Of a stretch of 8,514 bases of DNA, positions 2,597-8,514 are shown piece after piece. The position numbers were made by a program, and so were the translations under genes. The stretch is from IMG/VR virus record IMGVR_UViG_2681813225_000025; one strand, written 5' to 3'. Below the pieces are notes generated by a model, which had not been told where the DNA came from, searched no databases, and saw only the letters and a program-made list of their open reading frames with translations. Positions within the stretch are counted from its first letter, which is position 1. Each line of letters starts with the position of its first letter. This DNA comes from a virus (lineage: Duplodnaviria; Heunggongvirae; Uroviricota; Caudoviricetes).

Positions 2597-3406
2597 TTAT
2601 TCTTCTGAATTATCGATCACACTGTATTCCCCGGTTAATACAGAGGAGTCTGCCGGATCGATTGTCAGTGGTTCCTTTTCATCCATTGATACTGCACGCT
2701 GGATTTCAATTGAGACAGGCAGGTATTTAAACAGGCGACGAATAGCCGTTTTTTTTGCCATTTCTTCCCAGTGAGTTACCCATGGCCCGTTATTACCAGC
2801 CTTACTCTGGCTGCGCACCAGCTCAATCTGTTTGCGCGTCATAACTTCAAACTGAGTACCTCCGTCTTTCAGTCTTGCGACAGCATAGACGTGGGTAACC
2901 GGGGCATCTTCGTTTTCTCCTGGGCGGTGTATTAACTTTTCATCAAGGCCAAATTCGAAATTAAATTCGTCACCTTCACGGACAACACGGGCTGACAGGC
3001 TGGCGATTTGACCTGAACGGCGAGCCAGATCAATCATGCCGCGATAGCCAATGATTAGCTGAACGTTTTTTTTACCGCTCTTTTCGTTTTTATTACCAAA
3101 AGGCAGTAAATATGCATGACCGAGGGCGCTACCTGGCTCAAGTCCGAGCTGTGAACACTGTACGATGGCACCGATAAAACTCGTCGAGTCACAGTTTCTT
3201 AGTTCCGGTACTTTACGGATTTCTGTTGTAGCAATGCGGATCATGCGTTCCGCTGTCATGTGACGTGGCAGAGCTGCTGCCAGTTGCGCTTTCATTGCCG
3301 GGCTGTTAATCACGCACAGCACATCCTTATCGTTAACTGCTGCTGGTGCACGGTTTCCCTGAGTTTTTTGCAGATCGGCTTTTGCGATAGGTGGTTGCTT
3401 AATCAT
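2597..3406 (-). CDS. recT: RecT single-strand annealing recombinase
   Basis: 269-aa product beginning [21 protein letters not shown], recognised as RecT. AGGAG lies 6 nt upstream of the ATG at 3406, and that ATG overlaps the recE stop (ATGATTAA). The 288-aa track ORF is an in-frame upstream extension lacking an RBS. Confidence 0.95.
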
Positions 3407-6059
3407 TTGCATACTCCTTAGCCCAGCGGGGCAGTGATAACGTCTTAATAGCTGGCCATTCATCGGTATTTAGGCAGTCAGCCAGGGTCCGCAGATTGCG
3501 GTGATATTCCTGCTGGCCTGCCAGTTTTGCTTCTTCGCCCATCATGAAAATCTCAACCGGATAACGTCCGCATTCAACAGTTGTGCTGGCAACCAGAAAA
3601 ACGAAAGTTGGCTGCACGCCAAACTGTGCTTCATAACCGTCACTGTAGAATGCATCCTGAACGTGATAGCGGTAGTCGTAATAAGCCGTTTTGAATCGTT
3701 GAATATCCGCTGTGGTTTTCACGTCCATGATCCAGTGAAATTCAGGAATAATTTTGTCCGGACGGCACCGACACAAAATTCCTGTTTCCGGATCTTCCCA
3801 GTAAATTGATGATTCAGCGTGTCCGGCGCTTTCAACAAGCCATTGCCCCAGCGGCAAAGCCATAACGCTTTGATACATGAGTTCAATTTTCCGGCCTTCT
3901 TCCGCAGTGATAACCGTTTTTCCTGTGCTTGCGCATTCCATCAGAAACGCTTTCTCTTCTTCTTTTCCGGCGTTTGTACGGCGGTTAAATTCAGGTGCTA
4001 CGATAAAGCGGTTACTGAATTCTTCCGGTTCAAGTACCCGGCAGTGGAAAGCGGTTCCTAAATCGAGCGTTTTTGTCTTTGTAGTGTCCACGGGAGCATT
4101 TTTACGCCACAAATACAGTGCCGGAGTATCAGCAATGTCATCGAGCTGAGACTTACTGACACCGGGACCTGCGTGGTAATTCTCATTCGAAATTCCGTAA
4201 TAAATACCTGGCTCTATGTCTTCTACGATTACGGGATCTGCGACTTCGCCAGTTTCATCACTGCAATCGCGATGCGGATCGCTGCCAGCATTCTCATTGT
4301 GCGGATGTTCAGCGCCTTCCATTTCCTCCAGACCTTTTTCCTGATATTCATTCTGATTTTCTTCATTAAAGGTTTTCTGATACGTTGCGTCGCCCATTAC
4401 CGCGCCACAGTCAGGACAGTTGCCGCCGCCAGCCTTACCGCAGGCGGTGCAAACTTTCTCCGTTTCCTGTTGTTGCACTACTGGCTCAGGCTGTTTCGTT
4501 TCTGGCTCGTTTTGTTGCGTATTTGGGTCGTTCTGTTCCGTTTCTGGCTGATTCTGGTATATAGAGTCGCGGGTCTGGATCCCCTTAACCCATTTCGGAT
4601 CATTCGGGTCGCTAATCCCTTCAACAAATTCTCCGCGAGAGGCAGCCAGTAATTTGTCTGCATCGACAGGATTTTTGGGCGGAATGTTTTTCCGGGCTTC
4701 ATGGAGTTCTGCCCGCAGTTTCTGATATTTCGCATCAACAGAATTTACCTGTGACTGAGCATCCAGCGGCTGCGTGTCCTGATGATGTTCAGTTGCATCC
4801 GGTTCCACTGTTTCAGCCGTTGCCTGTTCATCTGCCATTGCGCAAGATGGTTGCAGTTTTTCTTCATCATCCTGTTTTTCTTCTTCTTCTGTTACACGCT
4901 GCGGCATCGGGGCAGAGGAACGACCGCAGGCAATATCCACGATTTCCGGATCAGGGTTGGCATGATCAGTTTCAGTCAGTACTTTGTTCAGATATTCAGT
5001 GACGTGTGCGGGGGTAACCTCGATCCCAATTGGTGCTTCTTTTACGGACGCAACCACGATGGCGCGGGAATAATCCAGCCCGCCAGGCATGGTGATGAAT
5101 TTGTCGCGGAAAACAGAAAAGGGCGGTTTATTTTCAGCGATAATTTCCTCGACACGTTTAGCGTGTGCCGGATGAAGGTTATAAATGTCCACGTCCATTG
5201 AACGAGCCAGTACGCCAGTGGCTACGTCGCGCGCCAGTGACGTCAGATCGTGAACGAAACCTTCGCCGCGATCGGTGAGGTTCCCGCCGCCAGCATTAGC
5301 GCCGGAAGCCGTGCGCGTGATGCGTGAAACACGATTTCCTTTCATCCACTCTTTTGTCAGCAGACCACGATCGGTGTAGTCTGCGTCCAGGTATGCTTCG
5401 AAAAAAGCAGTCATCAGCCCCAGGCTTGAATTGCCTGGATTAGGGAAAACTCTGTCAGTATCACGCACCAGTTTGTGGAGATCGCGAATTTCCAGCGGGT
5501 CGAGCAGGCTGGTTTTGTGGGAAACAGCCAGGGCAGTAACAGCTGGTAGCTCTTCAGCTCGTGCAATGTGTAATGCCTGGAGTTCGTCGCGTGAAACGTG
5601 CGTCACCGGTTTTTCGCTGCCGTGTTGAGCAAGCCAGCGAATGGGCAGCTCCTGACCGGAAATCGGGAGTAGCATATTCTCCTCAATCTCCGTCATGTCT
5701 TCGCCATTAACATTGGTATTGTCAGTGCTGGCTGGTTTGTCCTGCGCAGAGGATGAGGGCGCGATAAATACCATTGTGATGCCATCTTCCCCGCCTTTTT
5801 CGTAACGGTTGCAGAATTCCGTATCAAATACGCCTTCTGGCGGGAGGTCATCAACAACGGGCAAATTGACGCGAACAGGTTTTTTGAAGTCATCTTCATC
5901 GTAGCCAGCATCATCAATCGCAACAGCACCACGGGAGATGGCAATGGATAATTTTTTCGCTTCAGCCCAGTAAAAACCGCCTTTAATACCGAGACGTTTT
6001 CTGACTTTGTCATTTTTTGCTTCGTAATACAGTGGGTAAACTTGTTTATCGGTGCTCAT
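3399..6059 (-). CDS. recE: RecE exonuclease VIII (5'-3' dsDNA exonuclease, nuclease domain at the C-terminus)
   Basis: 886-aa ORF ending ...[14 protein letters not shown], with the C-terminal nuclease region recognised as RecE. Central Cys-rich segment ([16 protein letters not shown]) and a Q/E/P/T-rich low-complexity linker. GAGG-type SD upstream of the ATG at 6059. The N-terminal about 100 aa look divergent from my recollection of K-12 RecE. Confidence 0.9.
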
Positions 6060-6948: not shown

Positions 6949-7503
6949 CTATTTAATACTCAGCAACTGCTCGACGGTCATATTTTTAATTGCGCTTCGG
7001 TTTACAAGAGTCCAGCCCTGTTTCTCCAGATAAAGGCGGAAAGTGTCCAGGGTACAGACGAGAGCGCCATCAGGAACGGTTTCAGTGAATTCGACGTTGC
7101 CGAATTTGTCGAAGCGAACAACCAGAGTGCGCCCATCGCCCGGAATGATTTTGTTTGTGGGAGTGGTATTATTCTGGCGCAGTTCTTTCTCCATGCGATC
7201 GAACTCAGCGATGTAGGCTTCTTTAAATGCAGCGGCTTTTTTGCCGGTGAAGCCCATCACCAGGAAAACGAAGCCGTTTTTGGTGATTTGGTACATTGGG
7301 AGTTTGCGACCGGTTGAGTCGGTATATTCGCTCGACACAAAATTGTGCTCAGTGAATTTTGCTGAACAGTCCAGATTGCGAATTTTATCCAACACTCGTT
7401 CGTGGCGTTTACCAAAGAACTCAGCGATCGCAATAGACGTAGTGACAGCGCGTCCATTTTCGATGGTTACGTCAGGGTGAGAAAGGGTATGGATAGTAGC
7501 CAT
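6949..7503 (-). CDS. Phage regulatory protein Rha family (N-terminal Rha domain, uncharacterised C-terminal domain)
   Basis: Residues from MATIHTLSHPDVTIENGRAVTTSIAIAEFFGKRHERVLDKIRNL...YTDSTGRKLPMYQITKNGFVFLVMGFTGKKAAAFKEAYIAEF match the conserved Rha-domain pattern (TTS..IAE.FGKRH..VL..IR ... PMY.MT..GF..LVMG.TG.KA..FK.AYI..F). Start set at the ATG at 7503 (GAGG 8 nt upstream) so the Rha domain is N-terminal as usual. The same frame stays open to an ATG at 7800 (283 aa, GGTGA-type SD), so a longer product cannot be excluded. Confidence 0.7.
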   Translation of the reverse strand: MATIHTLSHPDVTIENGRAVTTSIAIAEFFGKRHERVLDKIRNLDCSAKFTEHNFVSSEYTDSTGRKLPMYQITKNGFVFLVMGFTGKKAAAFKEAYIAEFDRMEKELRQNNTTPTNKIIPGDGRTLVVRFDKFGNVEFTETVPDGALVCTLDTFRLYLEKQGWTLVNRSAIKNMTVEQLLSIK

Positions 7504-7667
7504 GATGGCAGCCTCGATAGTCAGTTTAAATAACTCACCACCAAGGCTTTCCACGACCATAAGGGTGGTGAGACGTACAGGGGTGGAAATACCGGTGACT
7601 ACCGAAACCGGCCAGCCTTTCGGCTGCCCTGCACGCCCCACCATAATCTGAATGTGGCTGTGCATTA

Positions 7668-7700
7668 CGCATAAAAAAACCGCATGAGCGCGGTTATGCG
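7668..7700 (-). terminator. Candidate intrinsic terminator on the minus strand (stem AACCGC/GCGGUU, loop GCUCAU, then a U-run)
   Basis: Plus strand reads cgcataaaaaaaccgcatgagcgcggttatgcg; on the minus-strand RNA the hairpin is followed by 5 or more U. Lies between the upstream small genes and the Rha start, inside the alternative 5' extension of the Rha ORF. Confidence 0.4.
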
Positions 7701-7863
7701 CAGTAGTCATCATCGGGTTTCCACGCCCGGCACCCGCTTTATGAGGTGCAGGTGCACTATAATTCCACCCGTTCTGGTTTTCAATAGCTACATCCAACAT
7801 TTTCTCTCACCTTTCATCACTGAAGTGAACTTTGTTGATGCGGTGCCTGGTGCCTCCAGGTGA

Positions 7864-7885
7864 CGTTAACCAGTTAACAATTAAC
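7864..7885. repeat. Short tandem array with 8-bp period: GTTAACCA, GTTAACAA, TTAACGCC (GTTAAC is itself palindromic), next to a GTGCCTG/GTGCCTC tandem at 7842..7856
   Basis: Read directly from the sequence in an otherwise non-coding stretch; operator- or iteron-like appearance. A GATAAT -10-like hexamer follows at 7890..7895 on the plus strand. Confidence 0.4.
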
Positions 7886-7970
7886 GCCGGATAATCCACC
7901 CATAACACTGATGCTTTTAACTGTGCCGCGTGCGCTCAGCCGCATTCACCGCAAGCATCACAAAATTCAC

Positions 7971-8017
7971 TTTAAAAAGGGGCGGCAGGGCAGCCACGGA
8001 GTAGAACTGATGCCGCC
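7971..8017 (-). terminator. Candidate intrinsic terminator or structured RNA element on the minus strand (7-bp GC-rich stem GGCGGCA/UGCCGCC, then CCUUUUU)
   Basis: Plus strand 7981..7987 ggcggca pairs with 8011..8017 tgccgcc; an A5 run on the plus strand at 7974..7978 gives a U5 tail on the minus-strand RNA. The loop is large (23 nt), so the call is tentative. Confidence 0.3.
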
Positions 8018-8216
8018 AAAGACTACACATAGCAATGTCGTTATTTACAACCGGAGGCGCACTCCCACCATTTAAATTTGACAGACAAGACCGACTCTTT
8101 ATGGATACCGGAAATGCGCCTTCGTGTTATGCCCGGTTTTATTTCACCACCTCCGGGCTTTGGTGGCCTCGGCTATACCTCTACAGCGAGAATATTGAAT
8201 TAATCCAGTAAATGGA

Positions 8217-8369
8217 TTAGCTGGTATTTTTGGCAAGCCAGCGACGTGCGCCTGTTTCAGTTTTAAATGTTTTGCTTTTGGTATACGTCATGGCGGTGAA
8301 CGTTCCATCCTGGTTGGGGAACACGCCACACACTAGGGATTCGTTGTTGCCGAGGTCGATTTTTTGCAT
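8217..8369 (-). CDS. ydaF: YdaF-like small prophage protein (50 aa)
   Basis: Not in the ORF track. Hand-translated: MQKIDLGNNESLVCGVFPNQDGTFTAMTYTKSKTFKTETGARRWLAKNTS, TAA stop at 8217..8219, immediately followed by a perfect 7-bp hairpin (TAATCCA/TGGATTA). Weak RBS. Identity from memory of Rac gene order and size. Confidence 0.5.
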   Translation of the reverse strand: MQKIDLGNNESLVCGVFPNQDGTFTAMTYTKSKTFKTETGARRWLAKNTS

Positions 8370-8379
8370 TTTGCGAATC

Positions 8380-8514
8380 TCACATCTTGTTGCTGCATAT
8401 AGCGGCTTCTGCCTGCCAGAGATCCCAGTCGTTGCTGCGTAGAGCCTGTACAGCTTGGCTGTAAGTGATACCGCAACAATCCATCAAATACTGAACTACT
8501 TCGTAATGCACCAT
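8380..8514 (-). CDS. ydaG: YdaG-like small prophage protein (44 aa); start codon is the last 3 nt of the window
   Basis: Hand-translated: MVHYEVVQYLMDCCGITYSQAVQALRSNDWDLWQAEAAICSNKM, TGA stop at 8380..8382. Because the ATG sits at the window edge, an upstream extension cannot be excluded. Confidence 0.5.
   Translation of the reverse strand: MVHYEVVQYLMDCCGITYSQAVQALRSNDWDLWQAEAAICSNKM

Follow-up and report, generated by a model that had tools for sequence, protein, structure and literature searches.

What is encoded in the 415-bp interval (positions 7801-8216) between ydaF and a Rha-family gene of a Rac-type Escherichia coli prophage? The interval belongs to the viral stretch IMGVR_UViG_2681813225_000025 (8,514 nucleotides; hereafter the window), which carries recE (3399-6059, minus strand) and recT. 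An earlier note, made from the sequence alone, had described it as non-coding, with hairpins, short phased repeats and a plus-strand promoter-like element, and had offered three readings: terminators or attenuators gating read-through into kilR-recET, an operator array for the downstream gene, or an unannotated small RNA (sRNA). The third is very probably correct, in that the interval would hold the gene, with its flanking processing signals, of an Hfq-type trans-acting prophage sRNA of the DicF/KilS family. DicF and KilS are already known, as is the kind of RNA they represent; the unreported part is the resemblance of the 5′ seed to RprAproc, the processed form of the host sRNA RprA.

The features listed in that note are all present in the DNA, at or within a few bases of the positions given, and its view that no protein is encoded holds. 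The minus-strand open reading frames (ORFs) are of 37 aa or fewer, and homologues differ by insertions and deletions that are not multiples of three. Prophages of several E. coli chromosomes match segment 7601-8400 with 97% identity, and in these chromosomes PGAP places no feature between ydaF and the Rha gene. With short ORFs only, frame-breaking indels and nothing in PGAP, protein coding was rejected. Folding of both strands gave −140.9 kcal/mol for the minus strand (z = −3.0, with 0/100 shuffles as stable) and z = −2.05 for the plus strand.

Anatomy of a DicF/KilS-family RNA

The covariance-model search identifies the family directly. Rfam DicF (RF00039) matches 8031..7980 on the minus strand at full length (model 1-52) with 60.9 bits, above the gathering score of 48, and E = 9e-13. 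The GC-rich hairpin followed by five U that had been noticed on the minus strand, in which GGCGGCA (8017-8011) pairs with UGCCGCC (7987-7981) ahead of U5 at 7978-7974, is therefore the intrinsic terminator of a DicF-family sRNA; a terminator scan also detects it. Synteny is as in the dicBF operon, with the sRNA placed after a DUF1391 gene (ydaF/ydfA-type); ydaF ends at 8217. At the corresponding place in K-12 Rac, upstream of kilR, stands the annotated sRNA kilS (b4833), to which the window locus is, judged by sequence, orthologous. KilS was predicted from Hfq RNA interaction by ligation and sequencing (RIL-seq) and verified by northern blot in K-12 (PMC8175672). In pairwise alignment the first 59 nt of KilS and window 8068..8010 are near-identical (2 mismatches and 1 gap), and the two then diverge in the hairpin. 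A KilS-like 5′ end that runs through the seed and is followed by a DicF-type hairpin makes the element a KilS/DicF mosaic. The canonical DicF 5′ region, UUUCUGGUGACGUUU, is absent from the window, where AUUGCUAUGUGUAGUCUUU stands in its place, and similarity to DicF starts only at UUUGGCGG. The parts of the element are as follows.

8047..8130, minus strand: upstream long-range helix, with 5′ arm AUAACACGAAGGCGCAUU at 8130-8113 and 3′ arm GAGUGCGCCUCCGGUUGU at 8064-8047
7974..8068, minus strand: long form of the sRNA, 95 nt, the equivalent of the 98-nt KilS annotated in K-12 Rac
7974..8036, minus strand: predicted RNase E-processed mature sRNA, 63 nt (seed, CUUU, terminator hairpin, U5 tail)
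8017..8036, minus strand: 5′ seed AUUGCUAUGUGUAGUCUUUG, 20 nt, identical at 19/20 positions to the first 20 nt of processed RprA, AUUGCUGUGUGUAGUCUUUG
7974..8017, minus strand: DicF-type intrinsic terminator hairpin, stem 8017-8011/7987-7981, ACUCCG in the loop, U5 at 7978-7974

Among complete E. coli genomes the window form occurs in 53/5426 and the K-12 KilS hairpin type in 385/5426, and the site is annotated in none; all 53 genomes with the exact form, E. coli 300709 and O55:H7 DEC5E among them, lack a feature there. The homologous locus is also found in deposited phage genomes (H62/H74, Escherichia phage Rac-SA53, KU052037.1; H70-H73; H94, phage Tritos), where it is almost always unannotated and is once labelled ‘DicF antisense sRNA’. 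HnrS, a prophage sRNA of enterohaemorrhagic E. coli, was considered as an identity and rejected, being an unrelated late-region RNA of 66 nt.

The proposed route to the mature RNA starts from an operon transcript, or from a local start near 8068 as called for K-12 KilS, which would form the 16-bp helix upstream of the sRNA. RNase III cleavage of this helix would release a precursor, and RNase E would cut the single-stranded junction of AAAUAACGAC and AUUGCU, leaving an RNA of ~63 nt (8036..7974) composed of the 20-nt seed, a U-rich linker, the terminator hairpin and the U5 tail. Part of transcription would end at the sRNA terminator; read-through RNA would fold into a larger helix-closed domain (7970..7825), probably a further RNase III site, that stands between the sRNA and the message downstream. 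The mature RNA would carry two target-recognition modules, the DicF-type hairpin loop for ftsZ and the KilS-type/RprAproc 5′ seed. Processing by RNase III and by RNase E, association with Hfq and expression would be expected from the literature on the orthologues, and confidence is high that a processed sRNA of the DicF/KilS type, built as described, is encoded here.

The 16 bp of the upstream helix are interrupted by one bulge and one 1x1 loop and enclose ~48 nt; their core is the GGCGCA/TGCGCC complementarity pointed out in the earlier note. RNAalifold on 50 non-identical leaders finds compensation between GC and AU at three pairs (31/18, 38/10 and 32/8). The helix also appears in the minimum free energy structure of the single sequence, and a homologous helix exists in K-12 Qin. 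The CCGGAGG/CCTCCGG complementarity is likewise present in the DNA, but the two are not partners: the conserved consensus pairs CCUCCGG with CACGAAGG of this long helix instead.

In DicF, RNase III generates the 5′ end of a precursor of 190 nt and RNase E a form of 53 nt; an internal promoter was not detected (PMC10448788). A 72-nt form whose 3′ end is made by RNase III has also been described in K-12 (PMC5069750). Counting 190 nt back from the DicF 3′ end in the K-12 Qin sequence (L002) leads to the 3′ arm of the Qin helix, and the 72-nt form would have its 3′ end where the downstream outer helix begins. Since these K-12 RNase III ends would lie in homologous helices, the best reading of the two long helices on either side of the sRNA is as RNase III sites, and by analogy both would serve as such in the window copy. 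The upstream helix is thus a probable RNase III substrate, whose cleavage would free the sRNA precursor from the ydaF transcript.

Four substitutions separate the hairpin itself from that of K-12 DicF. They leave intact ACUCCG, part of the 3′ region with which DicF pairs to the ribosome-binding site of ftsZ (PMC5069750). For a duplex with ftsZ −36..+11 the predicted energy is −32.2 kcal/mol with the window RNA and −29.2 kcal/mol with K-12 DicF. As modelled, the hairpin module should still pair with the ftsZ ribosome-binding site and so inhibit division.

The 5′ seed and processed RprA

RprAproc consists of the last 47 nt of RprA and is an RNase E product (PMC9262595), described elsewhere as RprA60-105 (PMC3465796). 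These 47 nt begin AUUGCUG. A local alignment of window 8046..8017 with K-12 RprA nt 51-79 has 27/30 identities and a score of 43, whereas shuffled sequences average 12.6 and score 25 at most, so that 0/500 shuffles reach it; about 4e-8 chance matches of 19/20 would be expected in the region. In K-12, KilS has a single RNase E site (data of Clarke et al.) at 1418471 (PMC8175672 supplement 6). The site corresponds to KilS nt 32 and is displaced by 0-1 nt from the start of the AUUGCU that is equivalent to the 5′ end of the seed. The predicted 63-nt RNA and RprAproc have the same predicted fold architecture.

The shared part comprises RprA nt 51-79 only. Rfam RprA (RF00034) gives 30.6 bits at the seed, below its cut-off of 70, and the element is not a member of the RprA family; at most it is RprAproc-like. 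The literature consulted contains no report of a resemblance of DicF or KilS to RprA, or of the seed string; earlier discussion of Rac dicF-like sequences or of the seed is possible. The paper describing KilS mentions neither RprA nor DicF nor Rac (PMC8175672).

For RprA, csgD site I pairs with nt 60-97, with a genetically verified GCUG/CAGC contact at −87..−90, and ydaM/dgcM pairs with nt 45-75 (PMC3465796). The seed is predicted to pair with the RprA targets that use RprA nt 60-75, for example site Ib of the csgD 5′ untranslated region (UTR) and dgcM. With the csgD 5′ UTR, the G form of the seed found in many relatives gives an uninterrupted duplex of 15 bp (−24.2 kcal/mol, z = −4), and the G-to-A seed of the window makes the same duplex with one mismatch (−18.0 kcal/mol, z = −2.4). 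No such pairing is predicted between the 5′ end of DicF and the csgD 5′ UTR.

The seed occurs in front of more than one kind of hairpin. An exact-pattern scan found it in 117 viral contigs, on at least five different terminator hairpins. Another scan took the downstream hairpin as its anchor: of 87 loci, about 63 carry the DicF 5′ region in canonical form, 18 an RprA-type seed and a few some other seed; the 13-nt core GCUGUGUGUAGUC is kept in 17 of the 18 RprA-type seeds, while flanks and hairpins vary. In 25 viral contigs (L020 6904-6927, minus strand; also, for example, L011, L013 and L019) the RprAproc seed precedes a long terminator-like hairpin, GGCGGCCAUGCC...GGCUGGCCGCCCUUUUU. This long-hairpin element is unrelated to the DicF type, lies upstream of yfdP/yfdQ-like genes in another type of prophage and corresponds to no Rfam family. 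The long-hairpin and TACCAG-hairpin classes are absent from complete E. coli genomes, and Rfam DicF is not called in L004 and L042, the two divergent hairpin types tested. The exact 24-mer pattern of seed plus stem had 0 matches among species representatives, and a looser pattern with 15 specified bases gave almost only chance matches among the matches listed.

Other 5′ seeds occur on the same scaffold: CAUGUUGAUUACCUUUU, CAUGUUGAUUGGUACCUUU, GUUGGUUGGCACCGGGAACUUU and AUUGCUGUGUGAAGUACCAGUU (L221, L226, L180, L199, L172, L206, L181). In one of them, UUGAUUGGU is presumably common to the seed and the 5′ end of OmrA/B. Taken together with its 5′ flank, the canonical DicF 5′ region, AUCA-AUUUUCUGGUG (K-12 Qin, L002 2374-2398), resembles DsrA nt 6-21, AUCAGAUUUCCUGGUG (L360); the alignment scores 20, a value reached by 2/500 shuffles, and is weak. 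As a weak lead from sequence, the canonical DicF seed may also echo a host rpoS-activating sRNA.

A broader proposal is offered tentatively, as one that could well be wrong. The sRNA slot of lambdoid and Rac prophages would be a modular scaffold (processing helix, seed, terminator, structured spacer) in which seeds are exchanged, and the KilS-type seed, a widespread one, would be a copy of the RprAproc seed. Derepression of the prophage would then inject an RprA mimic into the Rcs/RprA regulon (csgD and dgcM: curli and biofilm), and the mosaic would in addition repress ftsZ through its DicF-type hairpin. That the 5′ seed truly regulates RprA targets is a serious possibility that falls short of being probable. 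The gain in annotation is modest, an ‘empty’ interval of 415 bp becoming a DicF/KilS-family sRNA gene with its maturation signals. Were the seed functional, prophage induction would be tied to the host envelope-stress and biofilm circuit, and the locus would be a natural case of a seed captured or exchanged among core and mobile sRNAs.

Several points weigh against this account. A scan found no sigma-70-like promoter directly upstream of the sRNA, so production would rely on transcription of the operon, and this a lysogen normally keeps repressed. The 5′ end of K-12 KilS was called as a transcription start site, not a processing site (PMC8175672), and the RNase III step in the KilS subfamily is consequently argued from DicF only. 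Expression of the window copy and the identity of the mRNAs it regulates are what we infer. The viral-contig scan demanded the exact seed and is by itself no measure of seed conservation. Neither the ftsZ duplex energy nor that of dgcM (z = −0.96) is clearly better than shuffles, and the G-to-A change of the window seed sits opposite C-90 of csgD site Ib, weakening that duplex. The only RIL-seq partner named for KilS is yncL (PMC8175672), which is not a known RprA target. The yncL duplex is also weak when its energy is compared with shuffles, by a method of low power: the validated DicF-ftsZ pair is not singled out either, so the test has little power.

Some of these points can be taken to mean that the RNA acts as DicF only, on ftsZ/manX-type targets through its hairpin, the likeness to RprA being a relic of recombination or common descent with RprA targets left unregulated. 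The retained DicF-type hairpin with its ftsZ-pairing ACUCCG would fit such a role, as would a seed mismatch at the genetically defined csgD contact and a KilS RIL-seq partner that is neither csgD nor dgcM. A relic is harder to reconcile with a 13-nt core that is kept while its surroundings vary, or with the same 20-mer on the unrelated long-hairpin element of other prophages. The homology, moreover, begins at the RNase E-made 5′ end of RprAproc, where KilS has its RNase E site, and the fold architecture equals that of RprAproc. Action as DicF only is therefore judged rather unlikely.

The downstream domain and the repeats

The 170 nt beyond the terminator (7970..7801) have their homologue in the spacer between dicF and dicB of K-12 Qin. 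Most of this RNA belongs to one structured domain.

7825..7970, minus strand: downstream structured domain, closed by an outer helix of 7970-7947 with 7845-7825
7928..7943, minus strand: small hairpin GCGGC-UGAGC-GC(A)CGC of the consensus structure, nearly invariant
7862..7888, minus strand: GTTAAC hairpin, with arms GGCGUUAAU (7888-7880) and GUUAACGUC (7870-7862) and loop UGUUAACUG (7879-7871)
7846..7860, minus strand: hairpin CCUGG-AGGCA-CCAGG of the consensus structure, which on the plus strand is the GGTGCCT direct repeat

Seed, terminator and downstream domain were aligned across 72 distinct homologues from viral contigs. The RNAalifold consensus contains the terminator, the outer helix, the hairpin 7943-7928, a 3-bp long-range helix, the GTTAAC hairpin and the CCUGG hairpin. 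Standard pairs occupy 99.0% of cells, and shifting the partners by 1-3 columns lowers this to 31-49%. Both sides have changed in eight pairs, compared with 0-3 in the shifted controls, and 0/500 column shuffles reach the observed values. Compensatory change, which had been named as a check on the hairpins, is thus found both here and in the upstream helix. In the GTTAAC hairpin three of the nine pairs are compensated, UA becoming GU or GC in 15 sequences, GC becoming UA or AU in 4 and CG becoming UA in 2. The UUAACUG of its loop is invariant in 72/72, and the base before it varies in 2. CCUGG-AGGCA-CCAGG is also invariant in 72/72 homologues, so that covariation is silent on this hairpin and speaks neither for nor against it.

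By analogy with DicF, the domain probably serves as an RNase III site and keeps the sRNA apart from the following transcription unit. Alternatively, it could be mainly a cis-acting RNA that alters RNA polymerase or translation, such as a put-like antitermination element or a leader of the next gene. This would explain the invariant loop and CCUGG hairpin, and the domain is unchanged although the genes behind it differ, with dicB in Qin and isrK or other ORFs elsewhere. The loop UUAACUG (7871-7877) is complementary to an invariant CAGUUAA (7917-7923) in a single-stranded stretch, and a pseudoknot is possible. Both segments are invariant in 72/72, so covariation is uninformative here, and a 7-nt complementarity within 115 nt is estimated to arise ~0.4 times by chance. 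An antitermination element would in addition lie downstream of the very terminator it would need to overcome. The outer helix of ~20 bp fits RNase III, and the published DicF form has an RNase III-made 3′ end. A mainly cis-acting domain is accordingly improbable.

More radically, the entire stretch might act only in cis, as a cluster of terminators and attenuators that meters immunity-proximal transcription into ant-kilR-recET and makes no trans-acting RNA. This is close to the gating of read-through proposed earlier, of which the intrinsic terminator stands and a limit on read-through downstream is probable by analogy with the K-12 dicBF operon. There the DicF terminator marks the end of a ydfABC-dicF transcript, and reading through it yields a longer RNA as well (PMC10448788). 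The highly structured RNA that flanks the terminator within the operon would suit such a role as well. The orthologues DicF and KilS, however, accumulate as discrete Hfq-associated RNAs with mRNA partners, and termination does not need a single-stranded seed that is conserved independently of the terminator sequence; a purely cis-acting function is very improbable.

The 8-nt phasing seen in the DNA is real (GTTAAC at 7865-7870 and 7873-7878, TTAAC at 7881-7885), and reads as an ‘array’ because GTTAAC is palindromic and supplies both arms and the loop of one hairpin. The GTGCCT tandem, GGTGCCT twice at 7842-7855, consists of the loop and 3′ arm of the CCUGG hairpin and the start of the 3′ strand of the outer helix. 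Tandem Repeats Finder, run on 7801-8216 with a minimum score of 30, reports no tandem repeat, and the repeats behave as minus-strand RNA helices, with compensatory and G-U-preserving substitutions, not as operators. GATAAT is present at 7890-7895, and the plus-strand promoter-like site to which it belongs scores 9/12; the region holds 2 promoter-like sites, compared with 1.0 ± 1.0 in shuffles, and the site is no better than shuffles and not conserved. That the palindromes are DNA operator sites for a phage regulator beside a plus-strand promoter, TTAACC-18-GATAAT, is hardly credible despite three (G)TTAAC motifs 8 bp apart and the promoter-like match, since homologues differ by changes that compensate each other within pairs, some of them giving G-U pairs sensible only in minus-strand RNA, GATAAT is disrupted by extra bases in K-12 Qin and interrupted in many homologues, and no plus-strand gene follows.

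Neighbouring elements and comparison with known systems

The gene order is best explained as an early-left operon on the minus strand, running from the UBA-like ORF and ydaF through the sRNA to isrK/C4/ant and kilR-recET; kilR is located downstream in close relatives, and the window itself has recE and recT. The non-coding RNA region probably extends further left than the earlier note had recognised, via isrK and C4 to ~7500. The neighbours are listed below.

8380-8514, minus strand: UBA-like small ORF
8217-8369, minus strand: ydaF (DUF1391, 100 bits), directly upstream of the sRNA
7749-7673, minus strand: isrK, Rfam 63.6 bits (threshold 50)
7648-7561, minus strand: C4, Rfam 79.3 bits (threshold 45)
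Ending at 6949, minus strand: Rha/Ant-type gene

The 283-aa ‘Rha family’ ORF (6949-7800, minus strand), annotated at full length by PGAP in relatives, has a Rha domain only from residue 120. Its residues 14-108 match Pfam PF10554 (Phage_ASH), and this stretch overlaps isrK and C4. A weak c4-a1b1 match also overlaps the N-terminal part of the ORF, within which lies a promoter-like site, TTGAAA-17-TATAGT (10/12), at 7784-7756 on the minus strand. The N-terminal extension, and perhaps part of PF10554 itself, may be translated RNA sequence of a c4-ant module like P1 immI, and the true start of Ant is probably the ATG at 7502-7500. Elsewhere in the window, full-length matches to SdsR/RyeB and SraC/RyeA (463-607 and 2169-2347) adjoin the prophage integrase gene (735-1811), which suggests integration next to the sdsR locus. 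A match to the RalA antitoxin sRNA (219 bits) adjoins a ralR-like ORF.

Among the known RNAs to which the element can be compared is STnc100 (RF02076), a candidate sRNA of gammaproteobacteria whose outer helix and GGAGGCACC hairpin are those of the downstream domain. Its model (31-147 of 206) matches 7953..7839 with 39.3 bits, below the gathering score of 47; the K-12 dicF-dicB spacer matches the same model with 34.4 bits, also below 47.

The first 20 nt of RprAproc recur at 19/20 positions in the window and at 20/20 in many relatives, the RNase E site is in the same place, and both RNAs open with a weak 5′ hairpin, followed by CUUU, the terminator and a tail of U. The window terminator is nevertheless unrelated to that of RprA, and the 5′ domain of RprA (nt 28-59, which pairs with rpoS and narP) is missing. 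RprA is, besides, a core-genome sRNA controlled by Rcs; genomic context differs, and regulation presumably does too.

DicF shares with the element its place after a DUF1391 gene and homologous helices both upstream and downstream. The two differ in the 5′ single-stranded region, which in DicF pairs with xylR and pykA and is here swapped for an unrelated seed of 20 nt. They differ also in the spacer between the upstream helix and the sRNA (~10 nt in the window versus ~125 nt in DicF) and in the gene downstream, which in the window is not dicB.

KilS is the orthologue. The hairpin of the window RNA is of the DicF type, whereas that of KilS is longer, CAUCAGUUUUUUUCUUGAAGUUCGGCUGAUG; the window seed has A for G at position 7 and ends UCUUUGG where KilS has UCCUGG. 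The window also lacks sieB upstream and carries the isrK/C4/ant module between the sRNA and kilR. Both RNAs nonetheless lie in a Rac-type early-left operon, 3′ of ydaF and 5′ of kilR, and are near-identical in the leader, the 3′ arm of the long helix and the seed, up to ...AUUGCUGUGUGUAGUC, and both are followed by the same downstream structured domain.

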